A DNA stretch of 63,984 bases, filler included, from Thelocarpon superellum (Eukaryota): assembly GCA_026025795.1 (NCBI GenBank). It is 3 parts of 3 records of this genome, joined end to end, with 100 filler letters (N's around TTAATTAATTAA, not from the genome) between each part and the next. Parts side by side here need not be neighbours in the genome. Positions count along the whole stretch, not along the records: positions 43,635 to 63,984 come from JAPEUG010000326.1; 2 more parts are not named here. One strand, given 5' to 3'. Below the pieces are notes generated by a model. It was not told where the DNA came from. It searched no databases and saw only the letters and a list, made by a program, of their open reading frames with translations. The translations under genes were made by a program, and so were the position numbers. Numbering within the stretch: position 1 is the first letter of the stretch; each line of letters opens with the position of its first letter. Shown here piece after piece: positions 52,235 through 63,199 of the stretch.

Positions 52235-55200
52235 ATGAACTTCGGCCTCAACCTCGCCAGCCGGCCCAACGGCGACGCGCTGCCGCCCGCGCCCATCAAC
52301 GACGAGCACGCGATGCCACGGCGCAAATCCGGACGCGTCTCCAAGAAACCCGACCTCTACCTGCAAGATGCCACCCTCCCGCCCAACGGCCAATCCGCCA
52401 AGCGGAAGCGCGTCTCCTCTGGCATCCTGGCCGCGCCCGACGACGAGGATGACGACGCGTCGGCCGATGGCAGCGACGACCCCAACCAGGACGGCTCCGA
52501 CGCTGACGCCGACGCCGACGCCGACGCCGACGCCCCGCCCCGTGGCAAGAAGCGCAAAGCCGCCACGGGCCGAGCCGGTCGACGCCCCACGACCGCGGGC
52601 AAGTCCGCGGCCGCTGCGTCTGGCGCCATCAAGAGCCTGGCCGTGCGGAGCGCCGTCGAGCGACCCACGCCGCGGACGACCAAAGGCCGCGCGGGCCGGA
52701 CCGTGGTCAATGGCGACGTCGCGAGCTTGTATGGTGAGTGACGTGCTGTCCGTCGCGCAGCGGCGCCCCTGATGCTGACCGTGATCCTCGTGCAGCCGAC
52801 ATCTTCGACAGCGGCAAATCGCTGGAAGACGTGGCGGCCGACTGGACGTCCCGATACCAACGGAATAACCTCGAGGCCATGCGCGATCTGGTCAATCTGG
52901 TGCTTGAGGCCGCCGGCTGCGATCTCCGGGTGACCGTGCACGACATCGATGACCAGGATAATGTCACGGGGAAGCTTGGGGATCTCCAAGACGAGTATCA
53001 AGCGGTAAGTGTCCCCGGCCCGCCCACACGCCCAGCGCGGCCTCGCCGGCCCCTGGCTAAGCCCAGCGGCAACGGATAGCAAAGCATCACAGACTACCCC
53101 TTGATCTCGCGCGCCCGCGTCCATCACTCCTTCCGCGCCACTCTGACCGCCTTCTTCCACGCCCTCATCACCACCATCGATGCCTCGTCGGTGCTCTACT
53201 CCGACCTCGCCCTGATCGAGAACATCCAGGTCTGGGTGACCACCATGTCCTCCTCCGCTCTGCGCCCCTTTCGCCACACCGCCACCGTCATCGCGCTCGC
53301 CATGGTGACGGCGCTCTGTCAGGTCGCGGTCGACATCGCCGAGGCCAACGCCAAGACGTCGCGCCAGCTCGAGAGCGAGACGAAGAAGCCCAAGAAGACG
53401 GTCAACCTCGGTCGCGTCAAGGCCTTGCAAGAGAAGGTCGAACAGGGCGCCGAGCGCCGCGAGATCGTCGAGAACACGATCAAGGACATTTTCGACACCG
53501 TCTTCGTGCACCGCTATCGCGACGTGGACCCGCGCATCCGCACCGACTGCGTGCAGGCCCTGGGCGAGTGGATCCTGACCCTGCCCGACTACTTCTTCGA
53601 GGGCCGCTACCTACGCTACCTGGGCTGGGTCCTCTCCGACACCTCGGCCCCCACGCGCCTGGCCGTGATCAAGCAGCTGCAGCGGCTCTTCAAGAGCAAG
53701 GCCAACGTCGCCAACCTGCGCTCCTTCACCGACCGCTTCCGCGCCCGCCTCGTCGAGATGGCGAGCCGCGACGCCGACGCCGGCGTCCGCGCCGCCACCG
53801 TCGAGCTGCTCGACTGGGTGCGCGACGCGGGCCTGCTGGAGCCCGACGACGTCGATCGCGTCGGCCGCCTGCTGTTCGATGCCGACGCCCGCGTGCGCCG
53901 CGCCGTCGTGGGCTTCTTCGCCGAGAACATCAACGACCTGTACCAGAGCAAGGTGGAGGAGCTTGGCGGCGAGACCACCGTGGGCCGCGCCCTGTCGCGC
54001 AACGCTGCCGACGACGCCGACCGCCCGCGCCTGTCGTGGTTGAAGCTCAAGTGCCTGGTCGAGGTGCTGCGCAGCCACGACGTCGACGGGCCCGACGGCG
54101 CGTCGCGGCACATCGCGCCCGGTCCGCCGGGCGGCCAGGACCTGCTGGTGGCCAGCGGCGTGGACTCGCGCCTGTCGCTCGCGGCGCAGGCCCTGTGCGA
54201 GCATCTTCCGGAACTACGGCAGTGGGAGGTGCTGGCCGGATACCTGCTGTTCGATCACTCCGAGCCGGCCCCGACCAAGGCCAGCCGGAAAAAGTCGATC
54301 AACGTCGAGGCGGAGGTGAAGAAGGCCTACCGCCTGACGGAGCCCGACGAGGCCATCCTTCTCGACCTACTATTGGCCGCCGTGCGCGCCAACCTCACCG
54401 AGGCCGACGATGCCGACGGCAGCAAGAAGGGGCGGAAGAAGACCAAGGTCACCAAGGCCGATGCGGTCCAAGCCCAGGAGAGCACGGCCCGCCACCTGGC
54501 CGCGCTGATCCCGCGTCTCTTGCAGAAATTCGGCGACGCGCCGGCCACGGCCTCGGCCGTGCTCCGGCTGGAGCACCTCCTCAACCTCGACGTCTTCCAA
54601 GCCCTCCGCCAGGACTCCACCACCTACGCCGCCCTCCTCGACGACATCAACCGGCAATTCCTCACGCACGCCGATCAGTCCGTCCTGGGCGAGGCCACCG
54701 CCGCCCTGCTGCACGCCAAGAGCTTCGACGAGCTCGAGGAGGTGACGGAGAGCAAGGTGCAGCATCTCTGGGACGACACCGTCGACACCTTCCGCGCCCT
54801 GATACCCGACACTGCGCTCGCGCGACGCGGCCACCTGCACGCCGACACCGTGGCTGGCCTCCGAAACACGGTGCGACGCATCAGCAACCTCGCGGGCATC
54901 TCGAATTGCGTCGACGTCCTGGACCCGGCCCCAGCCACGTCGGTGAAGCGTGGCCAGCCCGCCGTGCCCGCCGTCACGCCGCTGCGGAGCCTGCTCGATC
55001 TCGTGGCACGCGGGTCCGTGGCCGACGACGGAACGGTCGATGAGGGCCTGGCGGCCATGGAGGATGAGCTGGTCGCGTGCGCCATCCGGGCCATCTTCTT
55101 CTACTTCATGTGGCAGCTCACGTCGCTGAAGGAGCGGGTGAACGAGGCGGCATCCATGGCGGTGGGCGAGCTCCGTGCGCTCCGGCAGCGACGCGACGCC

Positions 55201-56007
55201 TTTGCCACCAGCCTCATCCTCCTCGCCCACTACCGCACGGGCGTCGACGAGCTCCGCCTCACCGCGGCCGGCGCCTTCTGTGATCTCTACACCCTCTTCT
55301 CCACCCTGCGCCAGGTCCAGCTCCCGTCGGAGGAGGTTGTCGCCGCCGAGCTCCTGTCCCAGCTCATCAGCGAGGTGTCCAGCGAGCACCAGACCGTCCT
55401 TCTGGCCGTCTACACCGCGGCGGAACAAGCTTATGGGAAGAAAGTCGGGCGGTCGCTTGAAGCGGGCGAAGATGACGCGCCCGTCGACGACGCATCCGAG
55501 CCGGAGTCGGACGGGGGTGAGGAGGAGGACGAAGCCGGGCAGCACGAGCGACGGCGCGTGGCGCTCGTCTACGAACAGCGCTTGTGCGAATTGGTGGGCA
55601 AGATGGTCTTGGCGATGATCGCACGCGTGTTGGATGCCTCGGGCCCGCAGAAGGGGAAGCTGAAGGAGCGCCTGCACCGCAATCGCTCGCGGCTGGGCCC
55701 GAATTTCCGCGAGGTCGTCGCGTACCTCGACGCCTCCAAGGCGAAGCGGCGGCCGCGGGCCGGGACGACCAAGGCGGCCGTGGCGGCCGTGGCGGCCGTG
55801 GACGTAGCCGTGTCCGACGCCGTCGCCCTGGACGCCGAGGACGACGAGGCCGGCGCCGAAGACGCGCCCGAAGACATCGAAGAGGGCGACGAGGAAGACC
55901 TACGGAACCGGGACTTGGCCGCAGCCGACGTCGAGGCGGACAGCGACCACGACGGCGAGGCGGCCGACCCGATCGAGGAGGCCGAGGATGAGATTATGGG
56001 CGACTGA
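52235..56007 (+). CDS. SCC3: Cohesin subunit Scc3/STAG; start may instead be at 52313
   Basis: MSSSALRPFRHTAT, VFVHRYRDVDPRIRTDC, YLRYLGWVLSD, FRARLVEMA; introns 52734-52795 and about 53005-53079. Confidence 0.96.
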
Positions 56008-56616
56008 ACGACGGAGCGACGGAGCGACGGAGCGATTGACGTGCATGCCTTTTCGTGCTGGTCTTCTGTGCGCTCGCTGTCTCTTAGCGTTTGCGTCGTG
56101 CTGTGGGCATTCAATGTGCCCCCGGGTACGACACGCCGATTCGTAGTGGCGGCGTGAATGGTGGATGAAGTTCCTTTGCCCACAACTGACGGCCACGACA
56201 ATAGTATTATATGTACAGTACACCACCTTAGTCTCGCGTGAGAGTGATGAACGACCCTTCTTCTACCTCTTTCCCCTCTTCAACGATTCTCTCTCCTCTC
56301 CATCTTCCAAGGACACTGAACTGTTCACGATCCACCAAGCAACGTCGCGTGTCCTGCCAAGTCGGTAACAGAGACTCGATCGGCTGTCCTTCAGTCACAT
56401 CGCCCTCCTCTGTGCCCGACCACGTGACCGTTAGACGAGCTGCCCCGCCTTGCACTCTCAGTTGGACACCCGCGACATTCTTCTCCCCGCCATTGATCGA
56501 AGCTGGTGATCCACCACGCCCGCTCACTGAACCAAGAGCTGCGGTCGCCTTGTCTGCAACGGGATGGGTTGACGGGCATCCTCGAATCCCATCGCCCCCG
56601 GGGTGGGCAGGTCCTC

Positions 56617-59600
56617 ATGGCCATGAGCTTCGACGGGTTGATCAGCCATCTGCTTGACGAGATTGCCCTGTGCGGCGAACAAGGTACGAGGTCTACGTGG
56701 TCGTGGTTTCATAGCTTCATCCCACGAGCTGCCACATCGCGGCGGGGACCGGCGCGTGGAATGCAGGTACCCAGGCGGAATCCGTCGGGCGCCATGGGGC
56801 ATCCGTCGCGGCTCCCGTCAGGTTCCCCGTCTGCTACGGCGAACTCGTTTTGGCTCCCCGCACGAAGCGGCCCTCGTTCGATTCCCACCATCGCACTCAG
56901 TTTTTCCTCAGATCATCCAAGCGTCCGCGGCCGAAGCACAAGAGGCTGATCTCGAGAACAGGGGCCTCAACGGAAATCATTTTCGATCATGTCGAGCGCT
57001 ACTACCATGACGCCAATCGTGCCAGTGTCGTGCTCGCGCCGCCTGTGGATCGCTCAAGCTCGAGCGCGGTAGACACGCCGGCGTCGACCAGTGCCGCGCG
57101 CCGGGCAGCCCTCGCACTGCTCAGCGGGAGCGTGGTCACGGCTCCGGCGGCGGTGGATCCGCCGTTGCGGTCGAAGATCTGGCAGTGGATGATCAAGCAT
57201 CCCGATGTCATCCTCGACCCCAATGGAGATGGCCCCTCGCCCGCCCATGACTCCACGGCGGCGCGAGTGCGGGTCAGTCAAGATCGTATCTGGCATGCCC
57301 TGACCGGCCACGGCGTTGACTGGGCCCGCTGTCCGCGATCCGAATTCCATTGTCTTCCCTTCATTGCCTCCTCTCGGGAGGCAGGCCTGCTCCAGACCGA
57401 CCTCATCAAGCTCACGAACCAAGATAAACGCTCCCTGCCCAAGCGGACCGATGCCCTCCACCAGAAGGGCTACATCGAGAAGAAGCCGGCGTTTGCCATC
57501 GCCCGCGGTCAACGGACCTCGCTCTTGACCCTGCGTCGCTTCGTCTCCTCGGTCCCCGCCATTCCCCAGGCGGATGAGCCCAACGTCGCCCGCCCGGCAG
57601 CCCCCGTCGAGCAGGGGTCGGCCGCGTGGACGGGCACGACGGTGGATGGTAATGCCCTCACGCACGCCGTCTTCACCATCCTCAAGGAGTCGGAGCTCAT
57701 CACTCGCCACGACTTGAAGCAAAAATTGGTCCGTCGCCGTCGCGGAGGCCGGCTGACCTGCGTGAGAAGGGAATGCTAACGGTGTGTGCTGGATAGGAGA
57801 TCCTGAAGCTGCCTTGGCAATCCCGCCTGGTCGCGCGTCTGGTCCGTAAGATGGAGTTCCTGGGCTTTGTCCGTCGTATCCGGGCTGCCTCGGAATACTC
57901 CAAGGGCGATCATTACCATGCCTGCATCAAGCTGATGCGCCTCCCCAAGGCCGAGGAGATGCAAGTCCTGTGGCGCGTCTCCCAAGAGGACTTTCGCCAG
58001 GAAAAGCCTGGGCCGGCCGACGACGAAGGCGAGGATCACGTCGATGACGCCCCAGACATCCTCGCCACCGCCTCGCAAATCGATCCCAAGGCCACCGCGG
58101 CGGGATCCCACGCCACCTGCCTCTCCAGCCGTCAGCTGCGTGAGCTGGGACGCAGCCTGCCCCAATGGAAGCCGCATGTGCCGCTGGGGAACCTCATCTT
58201 TGACGTGGTGGCCAGCGCAGGCACCCAAGGCATGAGCACCATGGCCCTCAAGGCCCAGACCTTTGGAGGCTTCTACAGCCGCCCGCTCGAGGTCACGCTG
58301 GATCGATTCACGGAGAATTTCCGCGTGTCGCAGCCACCACACCTGCGCCATCTCGCCCTCATCAAAGACGTGGCTCAGGTCGCACGCACTCCGCATTACC
58401 AGTACTACACCTACGACAACTTCCAGAAGCTCGTCGACGCCGGTCGCGCCACGTGGGAGGGCATCGGCACGGCCAGCAAGCAAGCGACGAAGAAAGCCAA
58501 GGTCAAACCCATCCGCGCTGCGCCCGTCGACGATGGCCGACGCGATGCCTATGGCTTCCCCCTCATCCCGGCTAGTAGGTTCGTGGGGAGTGGGGGGACT
58601 GCGACGTTACGAGAGAGCGTGCTAGCCGCCGCGGTAGAGCCAGCGTACATCAGCGGTCGTGATTTCATCCTCGTTCATCACGGCGGTGGCAGCGTCGGTA
58701 CGTGGTCTGGCCGTTCCCTGCTTCATCTGGCGCCCACTGATTCTCTAGGCCTGGGAACCTCCTCGAGTGAGCATCGCCCTGAAGGATATGCCGCCGTCGC
58801 CTCGTATCGGAGACGACAGGTCCCCGTCGATCCAAATGCGCCGCAGAAGGTCCGCGGCCGGCCGAGGAAGTATCCCAAGGGGCAAGAGCCGTATACCACG
58901 GCCAACAAGGCGAAAGCTCGGCAAGCACTGCGCGCAAAGGCGCTCGCCCAGGCCGCCGCAGGAGCCTCGCCCACTCCCCGTGGCAGGCCGTCCAACAAGC
59001 GCACCGCGTCCCAGGCTGGCCTCGCGTCCGAACCGGCGGAGACCAGCGAGGTGGTTGAGACGCCCGTAACCACATCGGCCACCTCCCAGACCCTCCCGCC
59101 AGCGGCAGATCCGTCTCCGCCCCCTCCGTCGCCTTCGCTCCACCCGTCCAGTCCATCACCGGCTGATTCGACCGTGACGGAGCAAGTCCGAAAGGGACCC
59201 GCGCCCTCGACACCGACCAAACCCAGTCCAGCGATCCAGGCCACAGCGCGGCCGCGCACGGCGAGGAAAGAGCCCGAATCCTCTCAAGGGCCCGAACCGC
59301 CCGCTTCACCCCTACCCTCCACCGGTCCTTTGCTCCCGGCCACGTCGCCGCCGTCGACCTCGAAGGGTCCATGGCGGGTACAGATCGATCCACCAGGCTC
59401 GACTCCCGTTCCGGTCAAGCGACGAGGCCGGCCGAGGAAACGGTTGATCGCTGTCATCCAGTCCGAAAAATTGATGACGCTAGATTGGTTTGCGGCCTCC
59501 AAAGCCCTCGATGCGCCCGCCTCGCAGGTCGAGGCGCCGCCCGTTAGCCTGCACGCCGACTCCGCAATCGATCTGCTCGAGGTCAGTCCTGCCGCTGACC

Positions 59601-62600
59601 TTCCGGCAAGTGACGTCGACGCAGTGGCCCCAGCGGAAGCCACTACAGGTGCTGCCACGACGACCATCCCACCCAAAACACCTCCCACGTTCATCCTCGA
59701 GTCATCAACAGGGAAGCGTGGACGGGATGGCGAGGATCTCCCGGCGACGCACACCCTCCCATTCACGCGATCCCGCGACCTGCCGATCGACAAAGCGGAA
59801 GCGCGGGCGACGAAACGGAGGCGGCCAGAGCCATCAGATTCACCGATCGATGCCACGCCCGACGAGGCCACTCCCGCTGTGGTCACCCCCCCGGCACTGG
59901 CCGAAGGATCTACAAATGGCGTCGTCGGGCTAAAAGGGGGCGGCTCGCTGACCTTCTTACGTCGAAAGATCATCCTGGACTTGGTCGACCGTTACGGCGG
60001 CGTCTTCGCGGGCGATAAAGAACTCTGGTACCCGTACAGCATGATCTGGATGAAGCAAAGCCCGGCAGCGGGGAAACCGGACGTCAAGACGTTGAAGAAG
60101 ATCCAAAAGGCCATGGTAGATGCGGGCCAGCTGCGGTCCATCGTCTTTACCTTCCATAACTCCAAGGGCACTCGATGCCAGAAGACCATCCTGACCCGCA
60201 GCCACATCGACCCAACGTCACCGCCGGTGCAGGAGCTGCAGCGAAGGATGCTGGAGGCCGACGGCGAGCATTATGTGCCCCCCGAACTGGGCGTATCAGC
60301 CATGATGAGGAGGCGCTTGGACCAGAGCTCGCACGGCATCTATGCGGTCATGCCCAAGGCCGTCGTGGTCGAGAACACCCGCGAGACGGTGACGTTGCAC
60401 AACAATCCCACCGACAAAATGTTCAACGGCCCGAGCTTGCGGGAGCCGGGCACGCGCAAGCGGAAGCGGAAGCGGATCCGTGGCGATTGGATGTCGGATG
60501 GCGAGGGGATCGAGGCCGGGCCGAATGGCCCAAGCGCAAAAAGCCAGCAACGCGTGCTGTTGAACGACGCGGAACAGCGCGCGGCCGCCGCGACGATCAA
60601 GCGCACGATGGACTCGAACTTGTGGCGGTCCAAGCGCCCCACCGCGCCCCTGCCCGCCAGCGTGGCGCGGGAGAAGGGTCCACGGCCTGTCCTCCCGCCG
60701 GCCCGATCCGCGGCCACCATCCACCCTGCCTACATCTCTCCCGCACCGGCTCCTTTAACATACCAGGATGAGAGACGGACCGATGCAAGACAAGTGGGCT
60801 GGAAACCGAATTCAGACAACACTGGCGCGCCCGAGGCCGACGCACCCACCGTGACATCACCGTGGGACCATCCATCGCTCATGACGCTGCGCTCGCAGAT
60901 CGAAGACGTCCTGGCACAGACCTCACAGCCCTTCCACGCGCCATCGGGAACGTTTGGGACCATTGGGGTCTTGCGCCAGATCACCGCGCCGTCGGCGCCG
61001 TCGATCGAAGCTCCCGCGCGGATGCGGCGGGGCAGCGAGGGTCTCTTCCAGGTGGGCCACGTGGGGGTTGACCACTTTGGCTTCGTGCCTAGTTCGCTCC
61101 AGGATGCCACCGTGGTCGAGACCCCGCGCCCGATCTCCAAGCCAGCTCGTGTACCCCGAGCTCACCGGACAGCGAAGTTCCAGGAAGCGATCATGGCCCC
61201 GCCATCGAGCGAGGCCCTGCAGGCGCAGCAAGAATACGAGGCCAAGCTACCCCATTCGCTTGAGGATGTCCTCGCACAGAAACGCAAGGGACGTGTGGTG
61301 AATCATGCCATTGCCAAAGATCCCATGTGGAGCAAGTTTGAGTATGAGGTCTACCGCGTCCAAAGCTGGGAAGAGCGTGACCCGGTGCTGTGGACCGGGA
61401 CCTTGCGGGACTTGCGATTCATCAATCACACCGTGCTCGTAGTGGAGCTGGCCGCGGACCACTCCTACGCCTCTCTCCTCTGGGAGCCGAGCGACGTGGC
61501 GTCCATCAGGGCCCCACCCCAGCCGACAGGGTGGGCTCTGGCCACGACGGCCCCCCCGCCGTCCCCACCGTTTCGTCGCGTGCGCGTCGCTCGGCCGGCG
61601 CCGGTGATACCAAAACCGTTGAAACCCGCCAAAGCCGCGCGGGTGGCCAAACGGGCGATGGTGTTCAAGACGCGGAGTCTGACGACCGTGAATCTACCCG
61701 CTCCCGACCTCGTACCGCCGGCGGGCGGGTCAGGGTTCCTGGGCCCAGTGAGCACGGGTCTCACGTCGGCCATGGCAAAACGACGTCGGGTGCGACGTGG
61801 CCGGCTCGTGTCGACGGCCGACATCTTCTCCAAGGACGATGATCAACGGCTGTTGACGGCCGTCGCCGTGGTCCGCACGCTGATCGGTGGCGTGGGTCTC
61901 CTGATTGATTTTGTGATCGTGGGCAAAGTCCTCCCGGCCTTTGATCTCCCCACGATCCAGCGACGATGGACCGACATCCGGCAGCGGAACATGCCCCACA
62001 TGGAGAAGCTTCAGGCCGAGTTTCAGGAGTTGTTCATTCCGGCCTACGAAGCTGGCGAGGTGCCGCGGATCGACTACGAATCCCTGGCGGACTATGATTG
62101 GAATCATTTGGTGGATTGGGCGCAGCGGAAGCTGAACACACCTCGACCGCAGATCTTGCCCAGCTTCCCAACGCAGCGGCACGTCTTTGACGAGCTGTTC
62201 ACCGTGGAGCTGCCGCCGGTCAAGGCGGCGTCTTGGCGGGATGAATATTTTGGCGTGGGCGCCCCACTGTTCCGACGGGGGGAGATGCTTCGGGCCCGAG
62301 CGTGGACGGCGACCCTGCCAAGCGCGCGGCCGGCGACGAGCCACGAGGCGATGGCGATGCGCGTAGCGAAGTCATGGATACGCGCCAATACCATGGCGCG
62401 CGAGGACGGGTACGATGCCGAGACGGCCAACGCCTTGCTACTCTCGCTTGGGGAGGAGGCGCTGCAAGCCGGGTTTGACGAGCTGCGCGCCGACAAGCTC
62501 ATGACGCACGTGAACCGGGAGCGAGCGGTACCGGGGCGGAACTTTGAGATGTCGGATCACTTCTACCACGGACTCAAGAAGGGTCTTCACGAGGGCCAGT

Positions 62601-63199
62601 TCCGTCGCGCCGCAGCGATGAAGATCGACCTCGACCGAGCCTTTCAGGCGCGCGGAGCCGCCGACTTTTCCTACCACGCCGACGACGGGCACGTGCTAGC
62701 CATCACGAACCTGGTGGCGCATCGGCGGATTCATTTGGTGCCGCGCAACATGCCCAGCAACCCGTTTGGCTTGATGGACGGCGACTACAAGACGCGGTTC
62801 ATGGATAAGTCCAAGATCCACTTTGGGCTGGCTTTGATGCCGACGGCATCCTACGTCTACGGGAACCCGCTGCTGCCTCTCCCACCGCTTCCCCCACACC
62901 CCCCGCCAGCGGACCAGCAGCCGATCCCGGCGTGGCGCGACATTCACGGCCGCGTGGTGCCGTTGATCTGGGCCAAGGCGATCGCGGCGGTGTTGAACCT
63001 CCTGATCGTCCGGCCGGGCATGGGCATGGACGAACTGGTGCGATGCCTGGCCCCAAGCCTCGAGGAGTGGGAGCTGCGCTTGTTGATGGACTGGATGCGG
63101 AGGGCGGCGGTGGTGGCCGAGGTAGATGAGGGATGGACATTACGTGAATGGTGGTGGATGGATTTGCATTCTCTGGAGTCTTTGGAGGGGAGCAGATGA
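56617..63199 (+). CDS. TFC3: TFIIIC B-block-binding largest subunit (Tfc3/Sfc3/GTF3C1)
   Basis: N-terminus FDGLISHLLDEIALCGEQG; winged-helix region GLLQTDLIKLTNQDKRSLPKRTDALHQKGYIEK; RRKIILDLVDRYGGVF; C-terminal EWWW; introns 56684-56961, about 57729-57797, and a probable 51-nt in-frame intron near 58698. Confidence 0.9.
56875..56905 (+). promoter_or_regulatory. Pol III B-box-like element (CGTTCGATTCCC) followed by a T5 run, within TFC3 intron 1
   Basis: GTTCGATTCC matches the tRNA B-box consensus GGTTCGANYCC except at the first base; function is inferred. Confidence 0.5.

Follow-up and report, generated by a model that had tools for sequence, protein, structure and literature searches.

A selected B-box-type motif at the 5′ end of the fungal gene encoding the B-box-binding subunit of TFIIIC, intronic in Thelocarpon superellum: a candidate autoregulatory site

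Introduction

A stretch of DNA of 63,984 nucleotides (nt), filler included, from the genome of Thelocarpon superellum (GenBank assembly GCA_026025795.1; hereafter the window) was analyzed, with attention to a B-box, GTTCGATTCC, in the first intron of tfc3/sfc3, the predicted gene for the B-box-binding subunit of TFIIIC, a transcription factor of RNA polymerase III (Pol III). A preliminary description of this DNA had proposed that TFIIIC regulates this gene through the intronic box, which it took to be possibly tRNA-derived. We report that a box of the same type is attached to the 5′ end of this gene in nearly all sampled fungal orthologues, that its intronic position is a recurrent variant of a commoner position upstream of the start codon, and that the site probably acts in tfc3 autoregulation.

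A B-box alone is enough for high-affinity binding of TFIIIC through Tfc3 and Tfc6. In Saccharomyces cerevisiae, TFIIIC at the extra TFIIIC (ETC) site ETC6 cuts TFC6 transcription about twofold (PMC3334521, summarizing Kleinschmidt et al. 2011). The B-box consensus strings GWTCRANNC and GGTTCGANTCC, each with a critical C, were used as given in the accessible text of PMC4228148 and PMC3395662.

Results

The tfc3 gene and its intronic B-box

After removal of two introns, a protein of 2078 residues is encoded at 56617-63199 (+) of the window (features in Table 1). The best database match of this protein was "hypothetical protein M1838_003090" from a T. superellum metagenome-assembled genome (P0001), which was 100% identical over the C-terminal 501 residues searched and whose N-terminus agrees with our model. 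Because of this match and of the B-block_TFIIIC and DUF6581 domains, the gene is identified by sequence as an orthologue of the genes for Tfc3/Sfc3/tau138, the subunit with which TFIIIC binds the B-box. A match to eWH_GTF3C1 in exon 3 was weak and fell below the curated cut-off. The deposited P0001 model (2061 amino acids) is without 17 residues (51 nt) near residues 640-660 that are in frame in the continuous open reading frame (ORF; 2078 amino acids), and the shorter model implies a predicted extra short intron in tfc3 exon 3.

Exon 1 closes with the first base of a Gly codon, and excision of intron 1 fuses MAMSFDGLISHLLDEIALCGEQG (...EIALCGEQG) with ASTEIIFDHVERYY. The identical junction is used in the deposited P0001, and the N-termini of the orthologues from Peltula, Pseudocyphellaria and Penicillium match, so that intron 1 is taken to be real; its limits and length, as given in the preliminary description, agree with the donor, branch-like site and acceptor read in the sequence. 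The box lies 192 nt from the donor and about 260 nt downstream of the ATG, with 77 nt between its core 9-mer and the acceptor, and its surroundings read GGCCCTC-GTTCGATTCC-CACCATCGCA, exactly where the preliminary description had placed them, as were the T-run and the possible acceptor beyond it. With its invariant C, the box agrees with the B-box consensus (GGTTCGANTCC / GWTCRANNC). At the place where orthologues usually carry a perfect box, upstream of the ATG, the window holds GATCGAAGC, which has one mismatch, still fits the loose consensus GWTCRANNC as worded in the accessible text of PMC4228148, and is possibly a weak or decayed upstream site.

Orthologue sample and recurrence of the box

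For comparison, JGI/ENA metagenome contigs were searched with an alignment of the exon-2 domain, which gave 190 pattern matches and 112 confirmed relatives, of which the best 80 were kept (L001-L080); because loci were chosen by exon-2 protein similarity only, the sample is blind to the motif. The exon-1 peptide pattern ..[FL]D.L[IV]..LL..[IV]AL.G..G, with GT after it at the same phase-1 position, was recognized in 65/80 loci, and for 62 of these 65 we could assign an acceptor that restores the conserved continuation, so that with the window 63 models and 51 distinct intron-1 sequences were obtained; the models of L036 and L059 were inspected by eye. The 5′ region was defined as the 330 nt before the donor through intron 1, and lineages were defined as clusters at 60% protein identity (n = 26), counts over which are safer than counts over loci because many loci are close relatives. 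The tree came from a quick IQ-TREE search over 285 columns and has several deep forks without support.

Among the 51 distinct intron-1 sequences, 14 contained the box motif GTTCGANNC, with 16 sense matches and no antisense match in all, compared with a mean of 0.57 introns with a sense match and a maximum of 5 in 2000 dinucleotide-preserving shuffles. Much commoner than this intronic place is one upstream: in most loci a sense-strand GTTCGANNC stands 57-134 nt before the ATG, and a perfect upstream box is present in 40/51 distinct 5′ regions. Taking both places together, 49/51 distinct 5′ regions hold GTTCGANNC (upstream only, 35; intron only, 9, the window included; both, 5; neither, 2), and the two box-free regions hold one-mismatch versions at the usual upstream place (GTTCAATTC in L035, ATTCGAACC in L065). 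Size-matched control windows in the same loci held a box in 6.8% of cases on average, with a maximum of 16% (200 draws). Counted by lineage, 24/26 have the box, 13 of them upstream only, 7 in the intron only, 3 in both places and 1 mixed, and the element is thus conserved between species. Among the 18 unmodelled loci, 4 had no upstream sequence, and in the others, with at least 450 nt upstream available, a box was found within 1.2 kb upstream of the match in 12/14; L029 and L068 had no box within that distance. The preliminary description had pointed to orthologous introns and promoters as the places where a B-box should recur, and it does recur, in introns and upstream of the ATG. This recurrence shows purifying selection on a predicted B-box-type motif at the 5′ end of the gene that encodes the B-box reader.

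The motif resembles a B-box and travels with tfc3

In an unbiased hexamer scan with one sequence per lineage, GTTCGA ranked first (24/26 lineages vs 3.65 expected, p ~8e-19), the runner-up having p ~2e-7. Position 9 is C in 62/87 GTTCGA hexamers of the 5′ regions vs 35/166 elsewhere in the loci, and positions 7 and 8 vary freely. By this pattern the conserved motif follows the published B-box rule with its critical C. Across sites the flanks lean towards G at −7 and C at −5; beyond this weak bias, the sequence surrounding the box was not conserved between lineages.

In L028/L038/L042 the upstream box, together with some 12 nt of flank (gcactgc GTTCGACTCCT gg), has the opposite orientation while keeping its distance from the ATG, whereas in the sister clade (L036, L050, L052, L055, L060) the box is in sense orientation. 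This looks like a small inversion that preserved the site, and an inverted box at an unchanged position argues for a protein-DNA site. The upstream neighbor of tfc3 in the window, a gene for the cohesin subunit SCC3/STAG, was syntenic with tfc3 in 0/50 loci, so the box travels with tfc3 and not with the neighboring gene. Within the window GTTCGANTCC was observed twice vs 0.82 expected (20/100 shuffles reach 2), GGTTCGANTCC 0 times vs 0.17 expected and GTTCGANNC 7 times vs 11.5 expected; because GTTCGANNC does not exceed expectation in the window or in the control windows, it is no general promoter element in these sequences. Exon 3 of tfc3 contains a second GTTCGAGTCC, in antisense orientation, which is probably a chance match, since the downstream coding parts of the loci hold the motif at background density.

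Other sequence features of the tfc3 5′ regions were recorded. In the upstream boxes of L010, L032-L037, L041, L056, L062, L072 and L075, GGCGAC follows 2-3 nt on and then CAA(A/C), which could be a lineage-specific extension, analogous to but unlike the extension of yeast ETC sites. CACGTG (an E-box), present upstream of tfc3 in the window and also in L002, L059 and others, is enriched in tfc3 5′ regions (10/26 lineage representatives vs 1.75 expected) and may be a second conserved promoter element of the gene.

Position and length of intron 1

An intronic box occurs in about 11/26 lineages, added to the upstream box or replacing it, and on the tree the intronic state requires at least 8 changes. 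The distance between 9-mer and acceptor is 48-77 nt in 11/16 intronic sites, which L027, L058 and the second site of L061 do not fit. Intron-only lineages often carry a one-mismatch copy at the canonical upstream place, namely GATCGAAGC in the window, GTTCGAACA in L007 and L011 and GTTCAAAGC in L017. The pattern fits a required site drifting between the upstream region and intron 1, with lineages that have both sites and the one-mismatch upstream relics looking like intermediates. The preliminary description had made the intronic position the essence of the element; it is better regarded as a recurrent variant.

The length of intron 1, which had been called unusual, was set within this gene against intron 2 only (68 nt). 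Orthologue introns 1 measured 71-694 nt (median, 150), and because 20/51 were at least 200 nt, long first introns are typical of tfc3 rather than peculiar to the window. Intron 1 is long in many lineages with or without a B-box, box-free introns of 235-283 nt being found in the groups of L004, L010, L013, L032 and L040.

Alternative readings of the element

That the intron holds a decayed tRNA gene, a tRNA-derived short interspersed element (SINE) or a small Pol III transcription unit is the least probable of the readings considered. Its attraction is that the T-run lies 16 nt past the 10-mer, about where the terminator of a tRNA gene would fall, and that the weak flank bias coincides with what we take to be tRNA positions 46 and 48; T-runs, though, are expected anyway in the 3′ part of fungal introns, and the box flanks are not conserved between lineages. 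ARAGORN found 0 tRNAs in the whole window and none in 60 orthologous loci, and Rfam at gathering score gave 0 matches in the window and none in 20 orthologous loci (100,878 nt in total). At E<=10 over 56400-57200 (801 nt), three weak Rfam matches were returned, none of them tRNA; mir-596, cow-rumen-1 and sR38 (E = 1.7-9.3, far under gathering scores) were rejected as noise. The best A-box matches near the boxes of the window and the orthologues had 2-6 mismatches (3 in the window) at no fixed spacing, and the T-stem is unpaired, as the preliminary description had recognized, G53-C61 being the sole pair possible. The likeness to a tRNA-Gly 5′ half (GTGGTTT at 56703-56709 to CTGCCA at 56729-56734) did not hold up either, since these bases lie 142-173 nt upstream of the B-box vs about 52 nt in a tRNA gene. 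The cloverleaf, A-box spacing and paired T-stem of a tRNA gene, pseudogene or SINE were thus absent in the window, where the box stands outside any tRNA or other Pol III gene, and the idea of tRNA likeness or origin was abandoned for window and orthologues alike. Because the loci contain no tRNA, Rfam family or A-box, the orthologue boxes are predicted to be isolated boxes of the ETC type. We also consider it highly improbable that the element is no DNA site but works through the pre-mRNA, be it as a switch of splicing, as a signal for intron retention or as an RNA motif resembling a T-loop. The box is on the sense strand in all 14 box-bearing introns, an orientation for which common descent can account, and either intron retention or splicing to the 56911 acceptor would give a truncated protein, since the TGA singled out in the preliminary description stops the intron-retaining message (ORF 56497..56949) and the 56911-acceptor message alike. 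Most boxes, however, lie upstream of the ATG and outside the intron, one clade has its upstream box inverted at the same place, no pairing around the box is conserved, and the folding of intron 1 RNA shows no unusual structure compared with shuffles (z = +0.77). Nor was a special role of the TTTTT run or of the 56911 acceptor supported, metatranscriptome contigs (two runs, X1 and X2; share 0.08) covering 57124-57401 only.

Two further readings accept a DNA site at the family level. If GTTCGANNC were bound by another sequence-specific factor, its presence at tfc3 would be ordinary promoter wiring, and such a reading could appeal to the canonical G before the box, which is not conserved (A 9, C 14, G 8, T 5; n = 36). 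It is nonetheless unlikely, given that the motif obeys the exact B-box rules (GTTCGA invariant, two free positions, an invariant C), is attached specifically to the gene of the B-box reader and is not enriched elsewhere in the loci or in the window. Distinctly unlikely is that the family-level element is real while the intronic 10-mer of the window arose by chance, Thelocarpon using the weak upstream GATCGAAGC or no site. The chance-level frequency of the motif within the window, the share of control windows that hold a box and the canonical place of GATCGAAGC speak for this; against it, each of 8 other distinct sequences that also lack a perfect upstream box has a sense-strand intronic box, and the box of the window fits 10/11 positions of GGTTCGANTCC and shows both G at −7 and C at −5.

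Table 1. Features of the tfc3/sfc3 locus in the window (positions along the window)
Feature	Position	Strand	Remarks
Gene for cohesin SCC3/STAG subunit	53080..56007	+	Upstream neighbor; Pfam STAG 8.4e-40, SCD 2.1e-33
CACGTG (E-box)	56421..56426		191-196 nt upstream of ATG
GATCGAAGC, B-box-like 9-mer, one mismatch	56495..56503	+	−122 from ATG, usual place of perfect orthologue box
tfc3 exon 1, MAMSFDGLISHLLDEIALCGEQ-G	56617..56683	+	22 codons + 1 base; N-terminus same in P0001, conserved in P0002, P0013, P0016
tfc3 intron 1	56684..56961	+	278 nt, phase 1; GTACGA donor, CTGAT branch-like site 56946-56950, AG acceptor
Isolated B-box GTTCGATTCC	56876..56885	+	Core 9-mer 56876-56884
TTTTTCCTCAG, T-run and possible alternative acceptor	56901..56911	+	TTTTT 56901-56905; acceptor ending 56911
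TGA stop	56947..56949	+	Within intron 1
tfc3 exon 2	56962..57728	+	B-block_TFIIIC winged-helix domain, Pfam PF04182, E = 9.4e-23
tfc3 intron 2	57729..57796	+	68 nt; GTCCGT ... GCTAAC ... AG
tfc3 exon 3	57797..63199	+	DUF6581, Pfam, E = 2.2e-108; deposited model removes 51 nt more
GTTCGAGTCC in tfc3 exon 3	60610..60619	-	Codons ..MDSNLW..; probable chance match

Discussion

The box GTTCGATTC(C) of intron 1 is probably a selected, isolated ETC-type TFIIIC site that acts in tfc3 autoregulation. What had been proposed as an autoregulatory B-box in this intron is strengthened by the recurrence of the box in orthologous introns and upstream regions, and loses the tRNA origin and the essential intronic position that came with it. 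Several points weigh against this reading. The motif's frequency inside the window alone is at chance level, so that it exceeds chance only by way of the orthologues. The base before the window box is C rather than G. The 10-nt 3′ extension of the yeast type was not seen across the lineages, which show just C-richness at +9 to +14; it may be a feature of Saccharomyces only. Many loci are closely related, so that raw counts overstate independence, and taxon breadth was judged from branch lengths and clustering with four named anchors (Thelocarpon, Peltula, Pseudocyphellaria and Penicillium). In the intron-only loci L058, L061 and L059 just 91, 121 and 159 nt upstream of the ATG are available, and their intron-only status is less certain for that reason. 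The direction of the feedback, finally, is one that we purely infer.

In the proposed mechanism, the tauB module of TFIIIC would bind the predicted B-box, occupancy of the box would rise with the level of TFIIIC and so report its abundance, and bound TFIIIC would lower the output of RNA polymerase II (Pol II) from tfc3. Given a selected TFIIIC autoregulatory site, we put such negative feedback at perhaps two in three; the site might instead regulate tfc3 positively or be architectural only (nucleosome-free region, boundary). If the box lies upstream and in sense orientation, the remainder of TFIIIC would reach towards the promoter, which suggests interference with the promoter or the start site. 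At an intronic site, as in the window, the simplest mechanism would be a roadblock to early Pol II elongation. An intron could host such a site free of coding constraint, and the site may have moved between upstream and intronic positions through binding-site turnover.

We know of no description of a lone B-box in the intron of a protein-coding gene as a Pol II roadblock. DNA-bound Pol III factors can roadblock Pol II (PMC5052057, PMC4228148), TFIIIB and TFIIIC among them (PMC5052057), and the action proposed for the intronic site resembles that of tRNA genes (tDNAs), at which a Pol III factor held firmly on the DNA stops Pol II during elongation; the documented roadblocks differ in being whole tRNA genes, where TFIIIB is the chief obstacle. 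The closest relative of the proposed circuit is ETC6/TFC6 of S. cerevisiae, likewise a lone B-box at the 5′ end of the Pol II gene for a tauB subunit. The gene here, however, is that of tau138/Tfc3 instead of tau91/Tfc6, and the perfect box of the window is intronic, with a one-mismatch version upstream, whereas the yeast site lies in the promoter; the site of the window also has no adjacent conserved extension of the yeast type and is known from sequence alone. With the ETC sites of S. cerevisiae and the chromosome-organizing clamp (COC) sites of Schizosaccharomyces pombe, the element shares a B-box that has no A-box, tRNA or Pol III gene nearby and is conserved between species. Yeast ETC sites, as covered in the accessible text of PMC3395662, differ in being intergenic and in their shared 10-nt 3′ extension, which was not found here; in the table of that source, A replaces the first G of the box in ETC2 and ETC4, as it does among the one-mismatch upstream versions of L035 and L065. 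In the literature available, which is without supplements and most subscription journals, no B-box at tfc3/sfc3 in filamentous fungi and no intronic autoregulatory B-box is described.

The comparison has a practical side for annotation: isolated B-boxes close to Pol II genes can have a function and are not necessarily debris of tRNAs. To our knowledge, TFC6/ETC6 in S. cerevisiae is the only documented control by TFIIIC of its own synthesis. A commentary on the TFC6 work asks whether other TFIIIC subunits are also autoregulated (PMC3334521), and a comparative answer to that question comes from the tau138 gene, whose 5′ end carries the box in 24/26 sampled fungal lineages. This answer suggests a widespread circuit, with different target genes in different fungal groups and with a flexible position, upstream or intronic. 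Sampling was confined to these relatives, which limits any dating of the element. A wider reading, which we hold tentatively and find slightly easier to doubt than to accept, is that TFIIIC autoregulation through isolated B-boxes is an ancient and general part of Pol III homeostasis in ascomycetes, its target having switched between TFC6 in Saccharomyces and tfc3/sfc3 in Pezizomycotina, and its site migrating between promoter or 5′ untranslated region and first intron, where it would act as a concentration-dependent Pol II roadblock. If true, this would be the first example in which a general Pol III factor acts from within an intron to throttle its own Pol II gene.

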